From positions 33,496-97,495 of the forward strand of contig JAFKGD010000015.1 of the NCBI GenBank assembly GCA_017307855.1: a stretch of DNA of 64,000 bases, given 5' to 3'. The position numbers and the translations under genes are program-made. This DNA comes from Burkholderiales bacterium. GTDB taxonomy: Bacteria > Pseudomonadota > Gammaproteobacteria > Burkholderiales > Burkholderiaceae_C. Below are positions 1,855 to 57,140 of this stretch, in pieces. The notes under the pieces are model-generated. The model was not told the origin of the DNA. It did not search any database and worked only from the letters and a program-made list of their open reading frames with translations. Numbering within the stretch: position 1 is the stretch's first letter; every line of letters begins with the position of its first letter.

Positions 1855-4107
1855 ATGCAGCACGACAACGAGAACTTCCAGGGCGTCATCGGACGCACGT
1901 ACCGCGAATCCCGCCCCCACTGGCCCGCGCCCGCAGCGGCGCCCGGCGGCGCGCCCAACGTGGTCTTCATCGTGCTGGACGACGTGGGCTTCTCCGACAT
2001 CGGCTGCTACGGCTCCGAGATCCGCACGCCGCGCATGGACCAGCTGGCCGCCGGCGGCCTGCGCTACAGCAACTTCCACGTGACGGCCATGTGCTCGCCC
2101 ACGCGCGCCTGCCTGCTCACGGGTCGCAATGCGCATGCCGCCGGCGTGGGCGCCATCGCCGAATGGTCCAACGGCTTTCCCGGCTACCAGGGCCGCATGA
2201 GCCGCAAGACGGCCACCGCGGCCGAGATCTTCGCGGACCATGGCTACGGCACCTACGCCATCGGCAAATGGCACCTGTCCAGCCTGGACCACTACGGCGT
2301 GGCCGGCCCGCACCCGCACTGGCCGCTGGGCCGTGGCTTCTCGCGCTGGTACGGCTTCCTCGGCGGCTACGTGGACCACTGGAATCCTGACCTGCACGAG
2401 GACAACCACCCGATCCGTCTCGACCCCAAGCCCGAGGGCTACCACCTGAGCGAAGACCTGGTGGACCACGCCATCGGCCAGATCCGCGACCACCTCACCA
2501 CCGCGAAGGGTCGCCCGTTCTTCACCTACCTCGCCTTCGGCGCCGCCCATTGGCCGCACCACGTGCCCGAGGAGTACATCCGCCGCTATGCCGGCCGCTA
2601 CGACTGCGGCTGGGATGCCATCCGCGAGGAGCGCCTGGCACGCCAGAAGGCGCTGGGACTGGTGCCGCAGGACACGCAACTGGCGCCACGCAACCCCGGC
2701 ATCGAGGCCTGGGACCAGTTGCCCGAAGGCGATCGCCGCGTGCGTGCCCGCCTGCAGGAAACCTACGCCGCCTTCATGGAGCACACCGACGAGCAGATCG
2801 GCCGCGTGATCGACGAGCTCGCGCGGCTGGGCCAGTTGAACAACACGGCCATCGTGCTGCTGTCGGACAACGGTGCCAGCGGCGAGGGCGGGCAGACCGG
2901 CGCGGTGAGTATCCGCAAGCACATGCTCACCGAGAAGGAAGACACGGCGTACGGCCTGGAGCATCTCGACACCATCGGCTCGGCGCATTCGTTCCCGCAT
3001 TACCCGATGGGCTGGGCGCAGGTATCGAACACGCCGCTCAAGTGGTTCAAGAAGAACACGCACGGCGGTGGCATCCGCGCGCCGCTGATCGTGCATTGGC
3101 CCGACCGCATCCGCGCGCGCGGCGAAATCCGCCACCAGTACCACCACGTGATCGACGTGCTGCCCACGCTGCTGGATGCCGGGGGCATGCAGGCGCCGCG
3201 CAGCTACCGTGGCGTGGAGCAGCTGCCGATGCACGGCATCAGCATGGCCTACACCTTCGATCCCGTCGATGGGCCCGACGCGCCCACGCGCAAGACCGTG
3301 CAGCACTTCGAGATCGTGGGCGACCGCGCGATCTGGCACGAAGGCTGGAAGGCCGTCGCGCGCCACGCCAAGGGCGACGACTTCGAGACCGACCGCTGGG
3401 AGCTGTATCACCTCGAAGAAGATTTCGCCGAGGTACACGACCTCGCGGCCGAGCGGCCCGAGCATCTGAAGCAGCTCATCGCGCTGTGGTGGGTCGAAGC
3501 CGAAAAGTACGGCGTGCTGCCGCTGGATGATCGCGAGACCGAGCGCGCCTTCGACTGGTTCCGCAACAACACGCCCAGCCGCTATGACTACCTGCCGGGC
3601 AACTCGCGCGCGGACCGCCTGATGGTGCCCGCCATCAACGAGCGCAGCTGGCGGCTCGACGCGCACCTGCACGTGGGCGACGCGGCCACCGCGCGCGGCG
3701 TGGTGCTGGCCTGCGGCAACCGCTTTGCCGGTTTCACGCTGTACTGCGATGCCGGCGACGTCGTGTTCGAGTACGTCTACACCGAGCAGACGTCGTACGT
3801 GCTGCGTGCACGCCTGCCGGCCGGCGTGCATACCGTCACCGTCGGCCTGGCGCGCCGCGGCGCGGGCGGGCGGTTCGTGCTCATGCTCGATGGCCTGGAG
3901 CAGGCCGCCGTGGATGTACCCAAGCTGTGGACCACCTACGGCGTGACGGCCGGCGTGACCTGCGGTTATGCCAACGTCCCGGTCAGCCGGGACTGGACGC
4001 CGCCCTTCGAATGCGCGCCGGGACTGGTGGAACGCGTGTCGGTGGAGATCGAAGGCGCGCCAGCGCGACCGGTGGGGGCGTTCGCGGCGTTGATGCAGGA
4101 GGAGTGA
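1855..4107 (+). CDS. Arylsulfatase (Cys-type sulfatase family)
   Basis: 750 aa. N-terminal VVFIVLDDVGFSDIGCYGS and the formylglycine motif MCSPTRACLLTGRN (C-x-P-x-R). Confidence 0.9.
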   Translation: MQHDNENFQGVIGRTYRESRPHWPAPAAAPGGAPNVVFIVLDDVGFSDIGCYGSEIRTPRMDQLAAGGLRYSNFHVTAMCSPTRACLLTGRNAHAAGVGAIAEWSNGFPGYQGRMSRKTATAAEIFADHGYGTYAIGKWHLSSLDHYGVAGPHPHWPLGRGFSRWYGFLGGYVDHWNPDLHEDNHPIRLDPKPEGYHLSEDLVDHAIGQIRDHLTTAKGRPFFTYLAFGAAHWPHHVPEEYIRRYAGRYDCGWDAIREERLARQKALGLVPQDTQLAPRNPGIEAWDQLPEGDRRVRARLQETYAAFMEHTDEQIGRVIDELARLGQLNNTAIVLLSDNGASGEGGQTGAVSIRKHMLTEKEDTAYGLEHLDTIGSAHSFPHYPMGWAQVSNTPLKWFKKNTHGGGIRAPLIVHWPDRIRARGEIRHQYHHVIDVLPTLLDAGGMQAPRSYRGVEQLPMHGISMAYTFDPVDGPDAPTRKTVQHFEIVGDRAIWHEGWKAVARHAKGDDFETDRWELYHLEEDFAEVHDLAAERPEHLKQLIALWWVEAEKYGVLPLDDRETERAFDWFRNNTPSRYDYLPGNSRADRLMVPAINERSWRLDAHLHVGDAATARGVVLACGNRFAGFTLYCDAGDVVFEYVYTEQTSYVLRARLPAGVHTVTVGLARRGAGGRFVLMLDGLEQAAVDVPKLWTTYGVTAGVTCGYANVPVSRDWTPPFECAPGLVERVSVEIEGAPARPVGAFAALMQEE

Positions 4108-32641: not shown

Positions 32642-35600
32642 TCAGGGCGCCGGCTCCACCTTGATGCGCGCGTTCGGGATCTCGCCGTACACGTCGGGCG
32701 CGTACAGCGCTTCGGCGCGCGTCGGCGGCAGGGCGAAGTCGCCCACGTTGTTCAGGCGCACGGTGTATTCGATCTTTGCCTTGCCCTTGGGCAGGTATTC
32801 GTAATACGTGCGGAAGGCTTCGAAGCCGCGCTCCTCGAACGCCGGCCAGGCCACACCGCGATCGCGTTGTTCGCCGCGCGTGGCGATCTGCGAATCGCGG
32901 CCCAGGCCGCTGCCCAGCACCGTGGCGCCGCCGGGCACGGGGTCGCTCACCACCACCCAGCTCATGTCGGCCTGCGCATCCACTTCGAGCGTGATGCGCA
33001 GCACGTCGCCGCGCGTGTAGCGGCCGGCCGTGGCCTGCTCCACCGGGGTCACGGTACGCGTGATGCGATAGCCCGCCGCGACCGGGGACGTCAGCGGCAC
33101 GGCTGCCAGCGCCTGCAACGTGAGCCACGGCCGGCCGCTGCCCTGGTGCGTGACGACCAGCGGCTGCGCGGCGCCCGGCGCGGGCCAGGGCAGCGTCATG
33201 GCGTTGTTGCGCAGCATGCCCACGGCGGCGGGCGCGCCGATGGCCGTGCCCTGGTGCGGCGCGCCCTGGGTGGTGTTCGCGTCGGCGGGCTTCACGCGTT
33301 CGACCCGCGCCCAGTCCACCGCGGCGGTGCCGCTGCCCAGTTGCGCGCGCGTGGTGCCGGCCACGGGTTGCGATTCGAACTTGGCCGAGAACTGGCGCAG
33401 CGCCAGGTTGCCCCACAGGTTGGCCGTGGTGGTGTGCCAGGCGCCGTTCTGCTGGCGCGCGATGAAGCCGGCGGCCAGGCGGCCCATGTCGTCCTTCCAG
33501 GCCGGGTCGTCCATCACCGAGAGCAGCAGGCGCGCGGCGTTGACGTCGGGGCCCTGCATCAGCCACCACCAGGCGTCGTCGCGCTCGGTGCTGAACGACA
33601 TGCGCGTGCCCTGGTAGGTGAGCCGCGCGCGCAGGATCTGCGTGGCCTCGGCCAGCCGCTCGGCGCGGCGCGGCGCATCCGGCATGCGCTGCAGGATGTC
33701 GTGCCAGTCGATCACGGCGTGCGTGGGCCACTGGTTGGGCGCGAGGGTGACGCTCTGCAGCAGGCGCGGCGTGGCGGCACCGGTGCGCGCGAGGGCCGCG
33801 ATGGCGGCGATCTTGCGCACGTCGAGGTCGGCGCGCGGGCTCCAGAAGTCGCGCTTCACGCGGCCTTCGACGAAGGCGATCAGGCCGCGTTCGAGCTCGC
33901 TGCGTACGGCATCTGGCAGTGCAAAGGCCGGATCCAGCGCGGCAGCCTCGTGCGTGGCCGAGAGCAGGTAGGCGGCCAGCGTGTCGCTGCCGCGTGCGCC
34001 TTCGCCTTCGCGCGGCGGGAAGTAGCTGGGCAGGCCATCGCTGTCGAGATAGCCCGGCATCAGGCCGGCCACGCGACGCCACAGCGTGGCGTCGCCCAGG
34101 CCGATGGCGCGGCTGGTCTGCTGCTCCAGGCAGGTGTAGGGGTAGCGCGCGAACCAGTCGCGCACACCGGGCAGGCCTTCGGCGAGGCGTGGCTGCAGCG
34201 ACAGGCGCAGCCCGCCGCGCGCGACGCCGTTGTCGGCCAGCGCGCCGGCCGGCGACGCCACGTCGATCGAGAAACTGCCATCCACCTGCGCCAGCGTGGC
34301 TTGTCGGACGGTGAGCGGCACGGCGGGCACGATGCGTTGCGTGGCCTTGAGCGCGTCGCGCGCGCCCGCGCTGCCGCTGGTCTCGCGCGCCTCGATCTCC
34401 CACAGCAGCGATTCGGCGCGGGTGAAGGCCAGCTGCGCGGGCGCCTTCACGTCCCACGTCACTTCACGGGCTTCGCCGGCGGGAATGTCGACCGTGCGCG
34501 CCGGCAACTGCAGCAGCGTGGCGCGCGGCGCCACCTCGACCTTCATCGCGCGCGACGTGGTGTTGCGCAGCGTGAACTGCGCCCGGAAGGCATCGTCCTC
34601 GCGCACCAGGGGCGGCAGGCCGCTGATGATCTGCAGGTCCTGCGTGGCGCGGATGCGCGCCTCGCCGGTGCCGAACAGGTCCGCGCCCGCATCGGCCACG
34701 GCGACGATGCGGAAGGTGGTGAGCGCGTCGTTGAGCGGCACCGTCACCTTCGCCTGGCCCTGGGCGTCGAGCACCACGCGGGGATTCCACAGCAGCAGCG
34801 TGTCGAGCAGTTCGCGCGTCGGGCTGCGCCCGCCGCCGCCACCCGGCGCCACGGCTTTGCGGCCGTAGTGGCGCCGGCCGATGATTTCCATCTGCGCGGT
34901 GGACGTTTCCACCCCCCACGAGCGGCGTTGCAGCATGGCGTCCAGCAGGTTCCAGCTGTCGTTGGGCATCAGCTCCAGCAAGGCCTGGTCGACCGCGGCC
35001 AGCGCCACTTCGGCGCCGCCGGCCGGCGTGCCGTCGGGCTTCTTCACGCTGATGGTCACCTGCGCCTGGCCGCGCACGGTGTAGCTCTCGCGGTCGGCCT
35101 TCACCGCGACGTCCAGCTTGTGCGCGCGCGTGCCCACGCGGATCTCGGCCACGCCGAGGCGGAAGGCGGGCTTGGAGAGATCGACCAGGGCCGTGGGCGC
35201 GACGTATTCGCGGCCCTCCACCCAGAAGGCCGTCCACCATTCGCGCGGCGCCTTGTAGCCCCAGGTGAAGAAGCTGTACCAGGGCACGTCGCGCAGACGG
35301 CCGCGCAGGGCCAGCACGCTCACGAAGGTGTTCGGGCCCCAGTTCTCGCCGACTTTCAGGCTCACGGTCGGGTCTTGCCCGTTGAGCTGCATCACGTGCG
35401 TCTCGACGATGCCCTCGCGTTCCACCGCCACCAGCGCGGTGGCGAAGCGGAACGGCATGCGCACCTGGAAGCGCGCGGTCTCGCCGGGCTCGTAGCTCTT
35501 CTTCTCGGGCAGCACGTCGATGCGGTCGTTGTTCTGGCCGCCGAACCACAGCTCGCCCTGGCGCGTGACCCAGACCGAGCTGGCGGCCTCGCTGGCGCGG

Positions 35601-47412: not shown

Positions 47413-48828
<1,416 letters not shown>

Positions 48829-48863
48829 TGGGCAACAATAATCGGGTTCAACCCCGATCGGGC

Positions 48864-49916
48864 ATGAGAGCAGAAGAATCGCAAATTTTATCGGCGTTCC
48901 ACGAGCCGGCGGCTTCGTCGGAGCCGGCGGCGCAGCTGCTGGTGTTCGACGCCTGCCAGCTGGGTGTCGTGCTGCGTGCGGTGCTTTTCGTCGAGGCGGT
49001 TGTGGCTGTGGCGTCCATGTATGGTGCGGCCGGCCCTTCGCACTGGTTGTTGCGCGCCTCGCTGATCACTGCCGTGGCGCTTCCGGCCACGCTGGCCTGG
49101 CTGATCGTCGCCTGCGCCGGCAAGCGCGCGCTCGCGCGTCTGCCGCGGTGGGCCCAGTACCTGGCAGGCGCGAGCCTGGGCGCGCTGGCCGGACTCTACG
49201 GTTGCGGCATGCTGGCGCTGGCGAGCTACGCCGAGGCCGTTCCCTGGCTGGCAGGCGCCAGCACCGGCGCGCTGATGGCTGCCCTGCTGGTCGGCGGCCT
49301 GGAACTGCGGGCGCGAGGCCGCACACCGGCCGACACCACCGCGCGCCTGGCCGAGTTGCAGTCGCGCATCCGGCCGCACTTTCTCTTCAATACCCTCAAC
49401 AGCGCCATCGCGCTGGTACGCGCCGAGCCGGCCAAGGCGGAAGCCCTGCTGGAAGATCTCAGTGATCTGTTCCGCGCCGCGCTGGTGGAGCAGGGAGACT
49501 CGGTGACATTGGACGAAGAAATCCGCATGGCCGAGCGTTATCTGGCGATCGAGCAGGTGCGGTTCGGTGACCGGTTGCGCATCGGCTGGCATCTCGATCC
49601 TGACGCCGACACCGCCCGGCTGCCGCCGCTTCTGCTCCAGCCGCTGGTGGAGAATGCCGTACGCCATGGCGTGGAGCCCAGCGACAGCGGCGCCGACATC
49701 GAAATCAGCACCGAACGGCGCCGCAACACGGTCGTCATCAAGGTTGCCAATACCGTTCCGGCCGGACCGGGCACGCCAGGACACGGCGTGGCGCTGAACA
49801 ATGTGCGCGACCGGCTGCATTTGCTGCACGACGTGCGCGTGCAGTTCAGCGCAGCCTTGGATGGTGGCGTGTTCCGCGTCCGCATCGAATTACCCGTTGG
49901 GGGAGAAGTCCGATGA
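48864..49916 (+). CDS. LytS/AlgZ(FimS)-type sensor histidine kinase
   Basis: ATG at 48864 chosen because the GTG at 48822 would overlap the argH start. Membrane N-terminus, then the His_kinase motif [17 protein letters not shown] and [14 protein letters not shown]. Sits beside argH, as algZ does in Pseudomonas. Confidence 0.85.
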
Positions 49917-50656
49917 CCCTGAGAGTCCTGATCGTCGATGACGAGCCGCTTGCCCGGGCACGGCTGCGCACCCTGCTGGGGGACTGCGCTGATCCGACCG
50001 CCCAGGTCGTGGCCGAGGCCGGCAATGCCACCCAGGCCATGGACCTGATCACGCGGGAGCGTTTCGATCTCGCGCTGATAGACATCCACATGCCGGGGGC
50101 CGATGGCCTCAAGCTGGCCCAGGCGATGCGTGGCGTGGACCGGCCGCCGATGGTGGTCTTCGTGACCGCCCACCCCGGCCATGCGGTGACGGCATTCGAA
50201 CTCGATGCGGTGGACTACCTCACCAAGCCGGTACGCATCGAGCGGTTGCGCCAGGCGCTGGTGAAGGCCGAGCGCTTCCTGCGCGAGCGCGAGGCGCCGG
50301 CCGATGAGCCCGTGCTCGTCATCCAGGACCGGGGGCGCACGGAGCGGGTGCCGTTCGCGGAGATCCTGTATTTCAAGGCCGAACTGAAGTACGTCACCGT
50401 GCGAACAGCCGCCCGCAGCTACATCCTGGACGGCTCGCTGGCCGAGCTCGAAGCCCGGCTGACCGGCCAGTTCCTTCGCATCCATCGAAACGCCCTGGTG
50501 GCGCGCCGCGCCGTGCGCTCACTGGAAAAGCACTACAGCACCGAGCCCGGCGAAGAAGGGGAAGGCTGGGCCATCCGCCTCACCGGCGTCCAGGAGGTGC
50601 TGGCCGTGTCGCGACGCCAACTGGCGGCTGTCCGCGAAGCAATCGCGTCAGGCTGA
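49913..50656 (+). CDS. LytTR-family response regulator (AlgR-like)
   Basis: 247 aa. Receiver (VLIVDDEPLAR...LALIDIHMPG...KP) plus a LytTR domain (ILYFKAELKYVTVRT...FLRIHRNALV). ATGA overlap with the kinase gene. Confidence 0.92.
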   Translation: MTLRVLIVDDEPLARARLRTLLGDCADPTAQVVAEAGNATQAMDLITRERFDLALIDIHMPGADGLKLAQAMRGVDRPPMVVFVTAHPGHAVTAFELDAVDYLTKPVRIERLRQALVKAERFLREREAPADEPVLVIQDRGRTERVPFAEILYFKAELKYVTVRTAARSYILDGSLAELEARLTGQFLRIHRNALVARRAVRSLEKHYSTEPGEEGEGWAIRLTGVQEVLAVSRRQLAAVREAIASG

Positions 50657-50672
50657 CAAGACGCGAGCTACA

Positions 50673-50724
50673 GGTTTCCGTTCCAGCGTCTTCGGACTTC
50701 GCTCCGGGGATGGTCGGTTTCGGC
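50673..50724 (+). promoter_or_regulatory. Three phased TTCG-core direct repeats (candidate LytTR/AlgR-type sites)
   Basis: GGTTTCCGT (50673), GACTTCGCT (50695) and GGTTTCGGC (50716), spaced 22 and 21 bp. Each matches GGYTTCGAT from the 52944 site at 7 of 9 positions. They lie 74-125 bp upstream of the RES-like gene start. Confidence 0.4.
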
Positions 50725-50797
50725 GCACTGAACGCGCGGCACGCGACATCCCTCCTAACCTGCGGCGCTTGCGATGCTGCACGGAGGATCGATGCGC

Positions 50798-51394
50798 ATG
50801 AGACTTTTCCGACTGGCGTTTCCGGACCAGTCGTTGACGCGCACGGCGCGGCGGATGAAGGACTTGCAAAGGTGCGGGGACATCAACAGCGAACACCTCA
50901 GACCTTGTGTCGCCTACGAGTCGGCTGAGCTCGCGGCCATGTGCTCAAGCGAACTTCTGTGGAGTGTCCGCCGCAAGACAGAACTCCTGCGGGAGACCGT
51001 GACACTGCCTGGCGGCACCGGGCTGCATGGTCTCGCACCGGCCGCGGTGTGCGAGTCGTTCGATGCGCAGTACACGCCATCGCTGCCGCTGGTCGAGCAT
51101 ATGGTGGCGCACGGGCTGTTGTCGCTCTGGGTTCCAAGCGCCCATGCGGGCCACCAGCATGCGGTGTTCATCAACCCTTGCCACGCGGCGTTTGCGGACA
51201 TCGTCATCGAGAAGCGGCATATCGTGCTGACCCGGCCGCCATGGAGCGGATACGTCGAGTCGTCGGATCGCATGATGCTCGCTGCGGGAATCCACACGGC
51301 CGAACCGGCTGCGCCGAGCGGGCTCGCCTGGCGCTGGATTTCAGAGGATATTTCTCGGCATACGGCAGGTTTACTCCATGCATCGGATGGTTGA
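50798..51394 (+). CDS. RES-domain-like protein (NAD-targeting toxin family relative), atypical context
   Basis: ATG at 50798 sits 9 nt after GGAGGA (50783-50788). MRLFRLAF..., RPCVAYESAELAAMCSSELL and LLSLWVPSAHAGHQHAVFINPCHAAFADIVIE resemble the RES family pattern (G-R-W/F-N...Y..S...E...VPS...NP.H). The G-R-x-N position reads G-D-I-N. GC3 pattern supports this frame. Confidence 0.55.
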   Translation: MRLFRLAFPDQSLTRTARRMKDLQRCGDINSEHLRPCVAYESAELAAMCSSELLWSVRRKTELLRETVTLPGGTGLHGLAPAAVCESFDAQYTPSLPLVEHMVAHGLLSLWVPSAHAGHQHAVFINPCHAAFADIVIEKRHIVLTRPPWSGYVESSDRMMLAAGIHTAEPAAPSGLAWRWISEDISRHTAGLLHASDG

Positions 51395-52173
51395 GGGCGG
51401 AATTCGTCGATCCAGTCGAATTTGAACCATTCGGTTACATCTGGGCAAAAATCGGCCTGCCCTCAGCTTTGAGCCCATCCGATATGCCATCTGTTACTGC
51501 ATTTCTCCGGCACTGGTTGCCGCGTCAGAGTTCCGGAAGTGAGCGGGCTGCCCGAGCCGCAGGCAGCGGGTCCGAGACCGCCGAGTCCGCTACGCTGGCT
51601 GATTCGCACCTGATCATGAATGTCTTCAATCAGCTGGCGGCGAGCATGCATGCCCGCCTGGGTGAAGAAGATCCACGGCTGTTTGCGCTGGCCGACTATC
51701 TACGTCTGGTGCTTCGCTGTGGCAACGTTGACAAGCTGTCTGTGCACGAAGAATTCCTGCTGCTTCAGAGTTACATCCAGCTGGTGGCCCGCAATCGCCC
51801 GATAGACCTCTCTTTCGAATTCAGTCCTGGTGCGGAGGAGGAGGGCGGCCATGGGCGCCTCGTCCAGCGGCATCTGGCATGCGATCTCGTGGGCGCCGTA
51901 TTGAAAGCACTGCCCGGCGGAGGAGCGAGTGCCACGCGCCTGCGTATCGGGTTCGAGAACGGCGGGCCTGGCTGCGCCTACGTCCTGCATGCTTCGCTGG
52001 TTTGTCCGGATGCCGCCGAATTCGAACGCCGGCTTCGCAACGAACTGGACGGCATGGCCGATCGCTTCGACCTGCCTGGCGGCGGGCCGAAACAATCCTA
52101 TGGCAGGTCGGGAACGCACGTCACCTGGTCTGCCACCGTCGTGGGCCAACCGGCTTACCAGGGGGCCGTATGA
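51391..52173 (+). CDS. Soluble LytS/His_kinase-type protein with a degenerate ATPase region
   Basis: SHLIMNVFNQLAASM...LADYLRLVL...LSVHEEFLLLQSYIQLVARNR aligns with the AlgZ-like paralog ([10 protein letters not shown]...LSDLFRAAL...[21 protein letters not shown]). No TM segments. The N-box Asn and DxGxG are not recognisable. Start is uncertain: TTG 51391 overlapping the upstream stop, or ATG 51484. Confidence 0.6.
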   Translation: MRAEFVDPVEFEPFGYIWAKIGLPSALSPSDMPSVTAFLRHWLPRQSSGSERAARAAGSGSETAESATLADSHLIMNVFNQLAASMHARLGEEDPRLFALADYLRLVLRCGNVDKLSVHEEFLLLQSYIQLVARNRPIDLSFEFSPGAEEEGGHGRLVQRHLACDLVGAVLKALPGGGASATRLRIGFENGGPGCAYVLHASLVCPDAAEFERRLRNELDGMADRFDLPGGGPKQSYGRSGTHVTWSATVVGQPAYQGAV

Positions 52174-52916
52174 GGAGCCTATCGGTCATCCTGGCTGACG
52201 ACGATCGTGAGCAGTTGCGCTATCTCCAAGACCTGATCCACGTCCTTCGCCCCCACTGGACGGTCATCGCAGCGCTCGACGACATCACGTCGTTGCCGGC
52301 GTTGATCCAGAGTGAGCAGCCGTCCCTGTGCATTCTTGACGTCGGCTTCGAAGATACGAATGGAATAGACACGGTTCGAAATATTCCGAGCGCTCCTCCC
52401 ATCATCTACGTCACGGGCGACCCCTCCGCTGCTGTGAGGGCATTCGATACGCCGGCTATCGACTTCATCGTCAAACCCATACGCCGTGACCGTTTCGAGC
52501 AAGCGCTGGAGAGGGCCGAAAAACAGGTCGGGCTGCTCGCGGCCGAGAGGAGCCAGGCCGAGCGTTCCGATACCAGCCGCGTCGTGACGCCCACCATGGT
52601 CCGGATGATGCGCGGCGAAGATCTCATGATCGTCTCGCTGGACGAAGTCCGCTACTTCCAGGCGGATCGCAAGTACACGCGCGTGGTCCTCCAGTCCCAG
52701 GAAGGCATGCTGCGAATGAGCCTGTACGCCATCGAACCGTACATCAATGCGGACCACTTCTGGCGCATTCACAGAGGCTGCATCATCAACGCCCGGCGCG
52801 TGTCGCTGGCCAAGCGGGATGATCTGGGTCGTCTGTTCATCCGAGTCCAGGACCGGCCCGAGAGCCTGCCGGTCGCCAGGCCGTACGAGTACCTGTTCAA
52901 GGATGGCTTCTCCTGA
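52170..52916 (+). CDS. LytTR-family response regulator
   Basis: Start MRSLSVILADDDREQL (ATGA overlap with the upstream stop). Receiver D (LCILDV), T (YVTGD) and K (IVKP). LytTR domain VRYFQADRKYTRVVL...FWRIHRGCIIN. Confidence 0.9.
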   Translation: MRSLSVILADDDREQLRYLQDLIHVLRPHWTVIAALDDITSLPALIQSEQPSLCILDVGFEDTNGIDTVRNIPSAPPIIYVTGDPSAAVRAFDTPAIDFIVKPIRRDRFEQALERAEKQVGLLAAERSQAERSDTSRVVTPTMVRMMRGEDLMIVSLDEVRYFQADRKYTRVVLQSQEGMLRMSLYAIEPYINADHFWRIHRGCIINARRVSLAKRDDLGRLFIRVQDRPESLPVARPYEYLFKDGFS

Positions 52917-52943
52917 ATGTGCACAGGGGCGAACTGTCACGAA

Positions 52944-52973
52944 GGTTTCGATCTTGATTCTGAGGGCTTCGAT
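52944..52973 (+). promoter_or_regulatory. 9-12-9 direct repeat GGTTTCGAT-N12-GGCTTCGAT (candidate LytTR binding site)
   Basis: 8 of 9 identical 9-mers at 52944-52952 and 52965-52973, separated by exactly 12 nt. This is the canonical LytTR-site geometry. Lies 89-118 bp upstream of the hybrid kinase start (53062). Confidence 0.55.
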
Positions 52974-53061
52974 ATCGCCTGAACACAACTGACGATAGCC
53001 CTGTGACGCAGGCCGCAGGGGCTTCTAGGATGGGCCGGCTTTCGGACCGCCGTTCTTCCAG

Positions 53062-54891
53062 ATGTCCATCCCCTTCTTCGGCCGCGCCGCTGGCAAACAG
53101 CGTGTTTCAGGACTGTCGTCCTTGCCCCACGTCGATGTGGCGAGCCAGATCTCCCGGGAACGCATGGAGGTTGCCTGGCGCCAGGCCACCCGCACGATCC
53201 CCGGTCTGGCCGCTGCCGGAATGGGCGCTCTCTGGATGTGGGCGGCGACGGACAGGCTTGCATTGGGAAGTCTCTGGATCCTTGCCTGTCTGTTGCAGAC
53301 GGGGCTGATGTGGCTGGCCGCGCGACGCTACTTGAGGCTGGACGAAGCCGAGCGTCGACGGCATTACAGGGCGTTCTGGTGGAGCAACACCATCGGTGGC
53401 CTTCTACACGGCGCGCTGTGCACCACCTTCGCGTGGAGTGTGATTCCTGGGCTGGATCCGCCCGCACGCGCTTCCGCATCGGTGGCTTTGCTGGTCTTGG
53501 GGGGATGGCTGGCCAGCACCGGCTCCCTGCTGCGCGTCGGCTTCCTGTTCTCCGCGCTGTTGCCAACCTCGTCCTTGTGCCTCATCTGGTGGCCCGGCGC
53601 CCCTGCCGATGCGGCGGGTGCCGTGGTCGTCCTCATGTTCGGACTGGCACTGGTGTGGATGCACAGGGAGCAGGAACTTCTCCTTCAACGCTCCGTTCTC
53701 GCGCAGATGCGCAACGCAATGCTGATGCGCGAGGCATTGCAGCGCAGCCAGCTCATCGAGTCGATCAACAAGAAGAAGACCGAGATCATTGCTGCCGCCA
53801 GTCATGACTTGCGGCAGCCTGTCCATGCGCTCGGACTGCTCGTCCAGCGGCTGCATCCGAATCTGGGGGAGGCCGACCAACTGGTGCTTTTCCATCAGGT
53901 GCGATCCCGGGTGGCCGTGATCTCGGAGATGCTGGCTGGCCTGCTCGACCTGTCGAAGTTCGACAGCGGAAGCTACAAGGTGCGCCTCGAGACGGTCCGC
54001 TTGACCGACGTCGTGGAGGAAGTCGTCGGGCTCTTCGAGGACCGGGCACACCGGAAGAACCTCCGGTTGCGGCACGAGGTCGAGGATGTGGATATCCAGA
54101 CGGATGCGGCGTTGCTCAAGCAGATCATCCACAACCTCATCAGTAACGCGATCAAATACACGGCAAAGGGCGAGGTGGCGATCGTCGGCGGCTACGGAGG
54201 GGCGGGTTCGTTTCTCCTTCAGGTGCGCGATACCGGGATCGGTATTCCGCGTGGCAACCTCGACGAGATCTTCATGGAGTACTTCCGGCTGCCGGTCCAT
54301 CGCAATGGAAGCGAGGACGGTCTCGGCATCGGCCTGGCATTGGTCAAGCGCGCGTGCTCGTTGCTGAGCTACCGCGTCCACGTCAAGTCGATCGTGGGTG
54401 GTGGCAGCCGCTTCACGCTTGAAATTCCGGCGATGAGGGTGGCGCCGCATCGTCGCCAGGTGGATCTCCTGCCGGCCGACACGGTGCCCGGGGATTCTGC
54501 AGGTAACCAGGAGCATTGCATCCTGCTGCTGGAGAACGATGAGGTCGCGCACGACGCCATGGTTCGCCTGGTCTCGGACTGGGGCTATCGCGTCATCGCC
54601 AACACGGACGGCGAGCGCATGCTGCAACGCCTGAGAACTGATCCTGCATTGCGGCCCGATCTCATCGTCTCGGACATGCATCTGGGCGGGCCCAAGGATG
54701 GCGTGCAGTACATCGAGGCCATCCGGGAGATCATGGGAGCTCCCAGGCTGCCTGGTCTGGTGGTGACCGGCGATCTGGGGCGTGAGCTTCAGGAGCGTGC
54801 GGCCAAGAAGGGCATCCGCATCCTGTACAAGCCACTCCAGCCGCGGATCCTGAAGGCCGCCATCAGAGGCGTCCTGCGCTCTCCCGGCTAG
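53062..54891 (+). CDS. Hybrid sensor histidine kinase (membrane N-terminus, HisKA, HATPase, C-terminal receiver)
   Basis: 609 aa with about 5-6 TM helices. H-box AASHDLRQPVHAL, N-box LISNAIKYT, G-boxes VRDTGIGIP and GLGIGLALV. Receiver ILLLENDEVAHD...LIVSDMHLGG...YKP. Confidence 0.88.
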   Translation: MSIPFFGRAAGKQRVSGLSSLPHVDVASQISRERMEVAWRQATRTIPGLAAAGMGALWMWAATDRLALGSLWILACLLQTGLMWLAARRYLRLDEAERRRHYRAFWWSNTIGGLLHGALCTTFAWSVIPGLDPPARASASVALLVLGGWLASTGSLLRVGFLFSALLPTSSLCLIWWPGAPADAAGAVVVLMFGLALVWMHREQELLLQRSVLAQMRNAMLMREALQRSQLIESINKKKTEIIAAASHDLRQPVHALGLLVQRLHPNLGEADQLVLFHQVRSRVAVISEMLAGLLDLSKFDSGSYKVRLETVRLTDVVEEVVGLFEDRAHRKNLRLRHEVEDVDIQTDAALLKQIIHNLISNAIKYTAKGEVAIVGGYGGAGSFLLQVRDTGIGIPRGNLDEIFMEYFRLPVHRNGSEDGLGIGLALVKRACSLLSYRVHVKSIVGGGSRFTLEIPAMRVAPHRRQVDLLPADTVPGDSAGNQEHCILLLENDEVAHDAMVRLVSDWGYRVIANTDGERMLQRLRTDPALRPDLIVSDMHLGGPKDGVQYIEAIREIMGAPRLPGLVVTGDLGRELQERAAKKGIRILYKPLQPRILKAAIRGVLRSPG

Positions 54892-54908
54892 GCGACCGAG
54901 GGCCCCGG

Positions 54909-55607
54909 TCAGCTGCGGATGCCCGTCGCCGGCATCTCTGCGCCAGCCGGTGTGCCCTGCGCGTTCAGCGACAGCGGCCAGGTGTCCACGAAGTCCTGAT
55001 GGGTCTGGAGCATCATCTCCGGCCAGGCGGAAAGCACTTCGATGTATCTCAGATAGGTGCTGCGGACGACTTGGGCAAATGCATCGGCCCATGAACGGAA
55101 CACGACGTCCATCTCAAGGGGCGAGAGCAACACGGCTTCCTGCAGGGCTCGCTCCAGGCACAACGAGTAGCGGAGGGGATCGAAAGCACTGCCTTTGACC
55201 TCGAAGTTGCAATCTTCGCGCCTGATCATGCGCGTAAGCGCCAGCGTTTCGGTGCGGCACCCGGCCTGTGCACGGCGGCCCAGATGCAGAACATGATCCG
55301 AGTAGTCGTCGTGCGGCGGTTCTGCCGTCGGGACACTGCGAAGGTCCTGGAGCCGCCAGGCCATGAAGCGCTCGCTGACCGCGCCTGCGTTCGCCAGCAG
55401 ACGAAGGGCGAGCGAGCGCTGCAGATGCGGGCGATAGACCAAGGCGGCCGCATCCGCGTAGACGAAAAGGAGACAACGCCTCAGGAACGCAGGCAACAGC
55501 AAATGGTTGTCGTAAACGGCAAACTCGATGAGCGTCGCGCGCATCGATAGTTCATAGCGGGGTTCGAAACCGTCCATCAGAGTGCCCTCACGAGTCAAGG
55601 TGTGCAT
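54909..55607 (-). CDS. Hypothetical protein (no recognisable domain)
   Basis: Start taken at MHTLTREG (55607), with an alternative MDGFEPRY at 55577. The G/C-rich third-position pattern supports coding. The upstream part of the 364-aa track ORF overlaps a promoter region and looks non-coding. Confidence 0.5.
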   Translation of the reverse strand: MHTLTREGTLMDGFEPRYELSMRATLIEFAVYDNHLLLPAFLRRCLLFVYADAAALVYRPHLQRSLALRLLANAGAVSERFMAWRLQDLRSVPTAEPPHDDYSDHVLHLGRRAQAGCRTETLALTRMIRREDCNFEVKGSAFDPLRYSLCLERALQEAVLLSPLEMDVVFRSWADAFAQVVRSTYLRYIEVLSAWPEMMLQTHQDFVDTWPLSLNAQGTPAGAEMPATGIRS

Positions 55608-55985
55608 GATGGTTCGGAAATTTGTAGCGTGAAGGCTGGGGGAGCGAGCGCTTCGGGGGCGGGAGCAGGCCTGCGCTGCGCAGGATCGGACCATGGCATC
55701 GGCGGCGTCAGGCGGCGTGCTTGGTCCCATGCCACATGCCGGGCGGGATCGGGGATTCCACTGTTCCGCGTTACGTCCCACGTTCCACCGGGTGTTACGT
55801 AGCAAGTACTCGTCCATCGAGGGCTTGAAGCTGTAAAGCGGAGGGCGCAACGCACAGTTCGCCGGTTTTTTGACGAATTGGGAGCGTTTTGCGGGATTTT
55901 GGGACCCAGTGGTTTGGTTGCACGTTCTGGCCCGGGAATTGCCCTTCTGAACGCATATCCACCCGCAAATCCAAGGAGCGAAGAC

Positions 55986-57140
55986 ATGAAGGCAGTGACT
56001 CACCTGTTCAAAGGTTCGTGTGTCGTGATCGCGCTGGCACTGACCGGCTGCGCTTCGGACGGCAGTTTCAGCTCAACCGCCGGTGCAGGAGGCGGCGGAG
56101 GCACGACTGGCGGTGGGGACAGCGGCTCCGGCAGTCCCAGGACCTTCACCAGTGTCGAGCGCGGCACCAACGCCGTGGCCACGATCGGCCAGGAGGCCGG
56201 CGGCCTGCTCGGCACGGCGGGCAATCTGGTCGAGCAGGTGGGCGGCAGCGTGGGTCAGGCCAGCCTTCCTTTGGTGGGCGCAGGCACTGCGCCCGCGCTG
56301 GGCGGCGTGCTCGGCAACACCGGCCAGGCCGTGGGGGCTGTCGGCGCTGGCGTGTCGTCGGGTCTCGGCCAGCTTGGCAACGTCGCAGATCCGATCGGCA
56401 ACACGGCCGGCGGCCTGCCGCCCGCCGTCCAGTCGCTGGGCCAGGCGGTGAGCAGCGCAGGCGAGGCCGTGCGCTCGGTCGATGGCGGTCAATTGGGCGT
56501 ACTGGCGCCCGTGACCAACACGGCTGGCGAGGTGGTCGATCGCACGGGCGGCCTCGTGACGCAAGTCGGCGGTCAGCTGGGTACGGCGCTCGATAGCGAG
56601 GGCGTGCGGCAGGTGACGGGCGGCCTGAGTGAAGCGGTGACGCCCGTGGTCGGCGGCGTGATGACGGGAACCCAGAGTGCCGGCGACATGCTGGGTGTGG
56701 GCCAGCCCGTCAACAACCTGCTGACACAGGTGGGCGGCGGCGTGCAGTCGCTTGGCGAAGCCATCTCCGGAGACGGCAACCGTCCGGTGGTGAACGAGGT
56801 GGGTCAGGTCGTCTCCGCCGCGGGCACGACGGTCGTCGCATTGGGCGGTGTGGTGCATGCCGACGGTAGCCAGGGCGCTGGTCTGGGCAGCCTCGGTGGC
56901 GTCCTCGGCTCGCTGACGGGCGGGCTCGCGGGCGGCTCGGGCAGTGGCTCCGGCGGCGGCAGCGTGGGTGTGGGCGGCGGTCTCGTGGCTGGCGTCGCCA
57001 GCACGGCAGGCAGCCTGGGCGTCGGACTGGGCGGTGGCGTAGGCGCAGGTGCCACGGGCTCCTCGGGTGGCACGTCGTCCACCGGCGGCCTGCTGGCCCC
57101 CGTGGGCAACCTCCTCGGCGGCCTGAGCGGACGGCGTTGA
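55986..57140 (+). CDS. Glycine-rich repetitive lipoprotein (no TPS domain)
   Basis: Start re-set to MKAVTHLFKGSCVVIALALTGCASDG, with RBS AAGGAG at 55972-55977. Lipobox L-T-G-C. The mature part is Gly/Val/Leu/Gln-rich with recurring xQVGGxxG units and poly-Gly/Ser tracts. 384 aa. Confidence 0.75.
   Translation: MKAVTHLFKGSCVVIALALTGCASDGSFSSTAGAGGGGGTTGGGDSGSGSPRTFTSVERGTNAVATIGQEAGGLLGTAGNLVEQVGGSVGQASLPLVGAGTAPALGGVLGNTGQAVGAVGAGVSSGLGQLGNVADPIGNTAGGLPPAVQSLGQAVSSAGEAVRSVDGGQLGVLAPVTNTAGEVVDRTGGLVTQVGGQLGTALDSEGVRQVTGGLSEAVTPVVGGVMTGTQSAGDMLGVGQPVNNLLTQVGGGVQSLGEAISGDGNRPVVNEVGQVVSAAGTTVVALGGVVHADGSQGAGLGSLGGVLGSLTGGLAGGSGSGSGGGSVGVGGGLVAGVASTAGSLGVGLGGGVGAGATGSSGGTSSTGGLLAPVGNLLGGLSGRR

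Follow-up and report, generated by a model that had tools for sequence, protein, structure and literature searches.

Gene organisation of the locus

The stretch of DNA analysed here (hereafter the window; 64,000 nucleotides (nt), positions 33,496 to 97,495 of contig JAFKGD010000015.1, assembly GCA_017307855.1, from a Burkholderiales bacterium) carries on its forward strand three consecutive genes encoding a RES-fold protein of 200 amino acids (aa; 50792..51394), a soluble kinase-like protein of 229 aa (51484..52173) and a response regulator with REC and LytTR domains (52170..52916). The first two products are labelled hypothetical proteins in the NCBI record of this Burkholderiales metagenome-assembled genome (MBN9412141.1 and MBN9412142.1). 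An initial annotation, made from the sequence alone, had described a same-strand series of open reading frames (ORFs) running from an AlgZ-like kinase and an AlgR-like regulator through the RES-like and kinase-like genes to the LytTR regulator, and this series is present.

The RES-like gene begins at the ATG at 50792, which is preceded by a GGAGGA Shine-Dalgarno site and matches the starts of homologues in four aligned loci. As this start lies 6 bases before the 50798 first assigned to it, the gap after algR, non-coding as had been stated, is 135 nt long, the earlier figure of 141 nt holding only for the later start. Translational coupling of the RES-like and kinase-like genes through a TTGA overlap had also been proposed; a TTG/TGA overlap does occur at 51391-51394, yet the conserved start of the kinase-like gene lies 89 nt further downstream, across a spacer (51395..51483). 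The TTG at 51391 was rejected as a kinase-like start, being unlikely in view of the conserved ATG at 51484 (M-P...), common to the three closest distinct relatives, and of the closed frame in the nearest of them (L007/L008), in which a TAG closes the kinase frame 22 nt after the RES stop. Given these features and the variable distance (57-166 nt) and relative frames of the two genes in more distant loci, coupling is unsupported; a separate GGGAGGAG site precedes the kinase-like gene in locus L015. The ATGA overlap of 4 nt between the kinase-like and regulator genes (52170-52173), as originally described, is real and present in every homologous locus.

Within the spacer, a 34-nt stretch (51421-51454; TTTGAACCATTCGGTTACATCTGGGCAAAAATCG) hardly differs in L007/L008 and can be recognised in part in L009, although synonymous divergence (dS) in the flanking genes is 0.8-1.2; in more distant loci it is not conserved. 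This pattern of conservation suggests that the stretch may be an internal regulatory site, such as a promoter or operator for the kinase-like/regulator pair.

Homology and predicted fold of the RES-like protein

In Pfam searches, the three family assignments of the initial annotation fared unequally: the regulator matched LytTR (E = 6.6e-17) and Response_reg (E = 9.5e-15) above their gathering scores, and the RES-like and kinase-like proteins remained below threshold for RES (15.7 bits) and His_kinase (19.1 bits), respectively. For the RES-like protein, the match to Pfam RES (PF08808/COG5654; E = 0.016, gathering score 23.2) was limited to the C-terminal third of the model, and NCBIfam Res_ParT_toxin gave E = 0.017 with a score of 14.9 against a cutoff of 110. 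Its identity consequently rests on profile and fold comparisons. A profile of close homologues found no matches in the PDB. An alignment of 27 family members (A3) recovered Pseudomonas putida Res, ParT and a RES toxin at E ~2e-4, the matches spanning positions 24-142 of the 165 in the profile and most of the toxin domain, and hhalign against ParT gave a probability of 93.5% (E = 2.3e-7). One family member, P0027, matches Pfam RES over its full length with 35.2 bits, above the gathering score.

The same alignment was the basis of an AlphaFold2 (AF2) model with a mean predicted local distance difference test score (pLDDT) of 83.6, superseding an unusable run on seven close homologues only (pLDDT 43.5). 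Over residues 1-150, which form the folded RES-like core, pLDDT was ~86-98 per ten-residue block and mostly above 90. Foldseek searches of the PDB with this model returned RES toxins (ParT, NatT, Res and VPA0770) as all ten best matches, each with a probability of 1.0, E values of 1.9e-5 to 1.1e-3 and TM-scores of 0.53-0.64 normalised to the target; other ADP-ribosyltransferase (ART) folds (Tpt1, PARP and pertussis toxin) matched only at E > 0.09. Judged by profile comparison and predicted structure, the window protein is a true but remote and highly diverged RES-fold homologue, and the RES-like identity first proposed for it is borne out by the profile, hhalign and Foldseek matches as well as by the model of the protein alone.

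Residues 151-200 (51242-51394) form a C-terminal tail with pLDDT < 60. The ratio of nonsynonymous to synonymous substitution rates (dN/dS) between the window and L007 is ~0.21 for the tail and ~0.18 for the core, indicating similar constraint. A terminal [RHQ]-K-x-x-V motif is found in five of the seven close homologues and is missing from the window protein and P0002; the tail may be a docking peptide.

Loss of canonical active-site residues

The active site of RES toxins comprises an arginine on strand beta-1 (MbcT R27, NatT R23), the arginine of the G-R-W-N motif (MbcT R47, NatT R82), a tyrosine (MbcT Y58, NatT Y93), a serine and an asparagine (NatT S184 and N193) (PMC6436930, PMC11535050). 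In MbcT, the R27A, R47A and Y58A variants are non-toxic, R27A and R27E being non-toxic and inactive, E69A keeps partial activity and S126 is not required (PMC6436930); in NatT, R82A is a catalytic mutant (PMC11535050).

Mapping by hhalign to ParT and by the family alignment places R7 of the window protein at the beta-1 arginine, S116 at the serine and N128, with H131, at the asparagine of the N-P-x-H block, all retained. The G-R-W-N arginine is replaced by D30, the tyrosine by V40 and the RES glutamate by C51; the register of the last two may be off by up to two residues, but family members that keep the W-H motif also show tyrosine in the V40 column. The motifs quoted in the initial annotation are present (R27-C-G29-D30-I31-N32, V114-P-S116, N128-P-x-H131 and S53-E-L-L), and G-D-I-N sits at the G-R-W-N position as had been proposed. 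That position varies even between close homologues, with SSLR, NDAH or GVPP in its place. The [WF]-H motif and the tyrosine co-occur only in a separate clade (P0022-24, 27-29 and 37), and both are absent from the window clade. R7, E46, E68 and H131 are invariant in all full-length family members, including those resembling toxin-antitoxin pairs, Q122 is kept in 22 of the 27 members and W113 is near-invariant. Judged from these replacements and by canonical criteria, the window protein is expected to have no NADase activity. The suggestion that the locus encodes a signalling-controlled, NAD-targeting effector is made less likely by the loss from the window clade of the G-R-W-N arginine and the tyrosine, both essential in MbcT and the former also in NatT.

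Absence of an antitoxin

No antitoxin-like ORF was found near the RES-like and kinase-like genes on either strand in Pfam searches of overlapping and flanking ORFs, and the N-terminus of the kinase-like protein likewise gave no antitoxin match in Pfam. The reported lack of an Xre/DUF2384 antitoxin was confirmed in this way and by a profile of antitoxin-like proteins from relatives, which matched nothing in the 64-kb window. These proteins accompany two relatives with canonical motifs, P0038 (L011) and P0028 (L012), in which a small upstream gene overlaps the RES start (L011 1663-2001, 112 aa; L012 1835-2110, 91 aa). The two small products are 62% identical and match Xre_MbcA_ParS_C weakly (E = 0.01 and 0.035), with no Xre helix-turn-helix detected, and are likely a diverged antitoxin family. 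From this distribution, the family appears to hold classical toxin-antitoxin-like members and the window clade appears to have lost its antitoxin partner. No plasmid copies of the RES-like or kinase-like protein were found by tblastn against plasmids, and the PADLOC defence models gave no matches for the four proteins tested.

Rarity, linkage and selection

The RES-like family is extremely rare, with six clusters at 90% identity in 5.8 billion proteins and thirty representatives at E < 1e-3 in an exhaustive search of 1.84 billion proteins; a word-index homologue search with the 27-member alignment returned 8 proteins only. Patterns for the close clade had no match in GTDB representative genomes, a second scan of which found only a Variovorax relative from a different sub-branch, and a scan of JGI metagenomes added one further locus.

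The window clade is monophyletic in a neighbour-joining tree, and the kinase-like gene follows the RES-like gene in all eight of its clusters with readable context: the window with L001/L002, P0002 (L007/L008), P0003 (L005), P0004 (L004), P0005 (L003), the L009 relative, P0012 (L015/L016, 42% identity) and P0013 (L017/L018, 36% identity). The LytTR regulator comes next wherever the contig continues, and the three-gene arrangement (RES-like, kinase-like, LytTR) is thus seen in all relatives whose sequence extends far enough. Seen from the other side, all five kinase-like homologues found stand beside a RES-like gene. Upstream, algR is present in L001-L004 and L006-L008 and is replaced by a gene for an FHA-domain protein in L017 (P0013), which makes the linkage of the RES-like and kinase-like genes independent of algZR.

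The three ORFs are genuine genes, each held by purifying selection. With synonymous divergence near saturation, dN/dS is 0.04-0.14 in the regulator, 0.12-0.37 in the kinase-like gene and 0.16-0.30 in the RES-like gene, whose dS is 0.8-2.2.

Degenerate RES-like members without the W-H/Tyr motif also occur in other sub-branches (L010 5691-6323, L013 5375-5896 and L014 6001-6531), where they adjoin systems of an OmpR-type regulator, in part with LysM-FecR, and a CHASE2-PAS kinase in differing arrangements. L014 is from Variovorax sp. VNK109 (NZ_JBMSDV010000001.1), with PilY1 and a ComP-like minor pilin encoded upstream. Their gene neighbourhoods hint that a tie to two-component systems characterises the degenerate RES branch more broadly.

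The kinase-like protein, the regulator and the hybrid kinase

The kinase-like protein contains a LytS-type DHp domain with the H-box T-L-A-D-S-H-L-V-M-N-x-L-N-Q, in which H42 (codon 51607-51609), N46 and N49 are invariant across the kinase-like family and H42 aligns opposite the H-box of the neighbouring AlgZ-like kinase in hhalign. With PF06580, all six members give E <= 0.1 and the best reaches 1.1e-5, the window protein remaining below the gathering score of 25.2 (E = 0.0016-0.002). HATPase_c matches none of the six at the same threshold, and an alignment (A2) with the AlgZ-like kinase revealed that the C-terminal domain has neither the N-box asparagine nor the glycines of the G1 and G2 boxes. 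Upstream of the H-box region there are only ~35 poorly conserved residues and no sensor domain, and no hydrophobic or transmembrane segment was found in the protein, in agreement with its description as lacking membrane segments. The further description as a LytS-type kinase stands for the histidine-bearing H-box domain and falls for the ATPase half. Since the HATPase_c match, the N-box asparagine and the G1/G2 glycines are all absent, autophosphorylation is unlikely and the protein is, from its sequence, probably not an autokinase. The NCBI gene model MBN9412142.1 (185 aa) begins at the methionine of H-L-I-M-N; as it cuts off the invariant H-box histidine and T-L-A-D-S-H, it is probably too short.

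In the translation of the regulator (52170..52916), the acidic pocket D10-D12, the acceptor aspartate D57 and the conserved threonine and lysine are all present. Downstream of it, Pfam and NCBIfam matches and transmembrane-like segments identify a membrane hybrid histidine kinase (53062..54891) with a transmembrane region, HisKA, HATPase_c and REC domains. This gene follows the regulator in L001-L004, L007 and L009, that is, in all loci long enough save L005. There, the hybrid kinase is cut to a 164-aa ORF (2649-3143) with the HATPase_c (CA) region only beside an intact trio, which may point to a decaying gene or to a CA domain standing on its own.

The database protein P0014 (409 aa) is a chimera in which the first ~86 residues of the window RES-like protein continue, without a break in frame, into the hybrid kinase, of which the C-terminal two-thirds are present; this corresponds to window positions ~50798-51049 joined to ~53.9-54.9 kb. 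It is either a deletion variant lacking ~2.8 kb (what remains of the RES-like gene, the kinase-like and regulator genes and the sensor region of the hybrid kinase) or an assembly artefact.

Flanking genes and base composition

The AlgZ/FimS-like membrane LytS-type histidine kinase upstream (48822..49916, forward strand; Pfam His_kinase E = 1.1e-24, with a weak HATPase_c match at 1.5e-4) has 3-4 hydrophobic segments, and the AlgR-like regulator (49913..50656, forward strand) matches Response_reg (3.9e-25) and LytTR (2.4e-18). The kinase is upstream context, being absent from some related loci. Just past the algR stop (50643-50692) there are two short perfect inverted repeats, TCGCGTC/GACGCGA and AAGACGC/GCGTCTT, the second with CCGTTCC in its loop; there is no T-tract, and both are too short to be distinguished from chance. 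A scan of the locus for promoter and terminator consensus sequences gave nothing informative.

The G+C content is 0.59-0.65 over ~50800-56200, from the RES-like gene through a minus-strand ORF, and 0.66-0.73 in the flanks. Judged by this composition, the low-GC five-gene block downstream of algR may have been acquired as one segment. The position downstream of algR is kept in most loci, yet the dip at 50.8-56 kb resembles an acquired segment. The minus-strand ORF (54909-56003, probably 54909-~55577; sequence ...MDGFEPRYELSMRATLIEF...) lies within the block, has no Pfam match and adjoins the hybrid kinase in L001-L003 and L005.

Proposed role and alternative explanations

The reading tentatively preferred here, at somewhat less than even confidence, is that the RES-like protein is an exapted, non-toxic fold derived from Xre-RES systems that now works within a phosphorelay, as its accessory or input subunit. 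The protein would descend from Xre-RES toxins, with their ART-like fold, and would no longer be a canonical NAD+-degrading toxin. Its constant partner would be the soluble, sensor-less LytS-type DHp protein, in which the phospho-accepting histidine is kept and the ATPase domain is degenerate, and which probably passes phosphate to, or takes it from, the co-translated LytTR regulator in the fashion of Spo0B or ChpT. The likely source of phosphate would be the adjoining membrane hybrid kinase (HisKA, HATPase and REC). Through binding to the DHp protein, the RES-like protein would act as a gate on this transfer, possibly by means of the cleft that holds NAD+ or the antitoxin helix in the toxins; a physical interaction between the two proteins, the direction of phosphate flow and any ligand are what we infer here. 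Among the three ideas of the initial annotation, reuse of the RES fold as a sensor domain, taken as a sensory or regulatory role, fits best.

A more specific and wider form of this proposal, possible though doubtful, is that the domesticated RES protein is a ligand-sensing subunit (for NAD+, ADP-ribose or another nucleotide) or a gating subunit of a split phosphorelay in which a LytS-type, DHp-only phosphotransferase takes phosphate from the membrane hybrid kinase and hands it on to the LytTR regulator, with the degenerate branch, including the RES members beside CHASE2 kinases, forming a new class of two-component system accessory.

Several observations weigh against an accessory role. Three of the five canonical active-site positions (R7, S116 and N128) are kept, as is H131, and their retention together with the family-specific invariants E46 and E68, and the nearly invariant Q122, would be compatible with an altered catalytic site. 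The profile of the kinase-like family had no meaningful match in the PDB, including no similarity to Spo0B or ChpT. The hybrid kinase fragment beside the intact trio in L005 suggests that the hybrid kinase may not be an obligatory donor. The linked loci, moreover, all belong to a narrow set of metagenome contigs, probably Burkholderiales, and part of their linkage could therefore reflect inherited synteny.

If synteny were the whole explanation, the RES-like protein would have no direct functional link to its neighbours and would be the relic of a toxin, decaying or orphaned, or else a small unrelated protein, co-inherited with the signalling island after algR. Such vertical inheritance would fit the narrow taxonomic range and the neighbourhood shared in full by most linked loci, with algZR upstream and the hybrid kinase and minus-strand ORF downstream. 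A gene held at dN/dS of 0.16-0.30 while dS approaches saturation is nevertheless maintained, the linkage to the kinase-like gene persists in P0013 despite a different upstream neighbour, and the kinase-like family was never found without a RES-like gene, so that simple co-inheritance is considered unlikely.

Retention of toxicity is less probable again. The RES-like protein would then still be a toxin, acting as an NADase/NAD+ phosphorylase or as an ADP-ribosyltransferase, with the kinase-like protein as a non-canonical antitoxin in reverse gene order or with the signalling genes controlling the toxin. The RES fold with R7, S116, N128 and H131 would accord with this, R7 being the counterpart of the essential R27 of MbcT (PMC6436930), as would the strict co-occurrence and similar rarity of the RES-like and kinase-like proteins and a G+C content below that of the flanks at 50.8-56 kb, as in an acquired island. 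Against these stand the missing G-R-W-N arginine and tyrosine, the lack of Xre or ParS_C similarity in the kinase-like partner, the uncoupled genes, 57-166 nt apart, and a genomic position that is conserved rather than patchy, without plasmid copies found. That the kinase could serve as antitoxin by phosphorylating the toxin is further disfavoured because every ATP-binding motif is absent from the kinase-like protein, which could not phosphorylate a toxin unaided. Least probable of all is that the RES-like protein is an enzyme of altered chemistry built on R7, E46, E68 and H131, with Q122, which would make or consume a small molecule for the LytTR pathway or place a covalent modification on one of its two partners, the kinase-like protein and the regulator. 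The family-wide invariance of the four residues and the core dN/dS of ~0.18 would favour this, as would the chemical versatility of ART-fold enzymes, with which the lower Foldseek matches to Tpt1, PARP and pertussis toxin are consistent; but canonical NAD+-contacting residues have been lost, making NAD+ chemistry less likely, and no precedent was found in the literature searched.

Comparison with known systems

A literature search found no described unit combining RES and LytTR proteins, the matches to 'RES domain' with histidine kinase being irrelevant, and so agrees with the initial annotation that no RES/LytS/LytTR unit had been described. To our knowledge, all RES proteins described so far are toxins with NAD+-destroying or ADP-ribosylating activity that are restrained by Xre antitoxins; their physiological roles are debated. 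The RES toxin fold itself is known; what is new here is a genuine but rare RES-fold derivative in a conserved signalling context. If the accessory role proposed above is true, the locus would offer a tangible example of the exaptation of a toxin fold to signalling, kept under selection without its antitoxin and two catalytic residues. It may then also explain the input of a kinase-like protein that has no input domain, and this protein would become the first candidate of the LytS type for a phosphotransferase resembling Spo0B or ChpT. The general importance may be limited by the rarity of the family (~30 representative clusters in 1.84 billion proteins) and its apparent restriction to a few probable Burkholderiales. 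The system is compact, with three soluble proteins and one membrane kinase, and directly testable.

The window protein has the same fold as the RES toxins ParT (6D0H), P. putida Res (6GW6/9R35), MbcT, NatT (8QNQ) and VPA0770 (8GUG) and shares with them the beta-1 arginine (R7), the P-S motif (S116) and the N-P-x-H block, and distant members of its family keep G-R-W-H, the tyrosine and an upstream gene resembling the C-terminal part of an antitoxin. Unlike these toxins, it is below threshold in Pfam and NCBIfam, has D30, V40 and C51 in place of arginine, tyrosine and glutamate, lacks an antitoxin, carries an additional C-terminal tail of ~50 aa and occupies a fixed chromosomal place beside signalling genes.

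With the LytS/LytTR systems AlgZ/FimS-AlgR, BtsS-BtsR and LytS-LytR, the locus has in common a PF06580-type H-box (H-[LF]-[LIV]-[MF]-N-x-[LF]-N) and a cognate REC-LytTR regulator whose gene overlaps the kinase-like gene by 4 nt. It differs from them in that the kinase-like protein, at 229 aa, has no membrane sensor, HATPase_c domain, N-box asparagine or G boxes, and in that its gene is always preceded by a RES-like gene.

Spo0B and ChpT are histidine phosphotransferases that combine a DHp domain with a degenerate CA domain within phosphorelays. The kinase-like protein is consistent with a phosphotransferase of this kind by analogy, which rests on architecture only because its profile had no meaningful PDB match. 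The likeness, one of architecture and presumed mode of action, lies in a histidine-bearing DHp-like domain followed by a CA-sized domain without ATP motifs, encoded in one locus with a REC-containing hybrid kinase and a terminal regulator; in contrast to Spo0B and ChpT, its DHp domain is of the LytS type and has no detectable sequence similarity to theirs.

KipI and Sda are accessory or anti-kinase examples of two-component systems regulated by a further protein, so-called three-component systems. We know of no two-component accessory protein with a RES/ART fold. The locus resembles these accessory-regulated systems in that a small soluble protein, the putative gate of phosphotransfer, is encoded together with a kinase/regulator pair.

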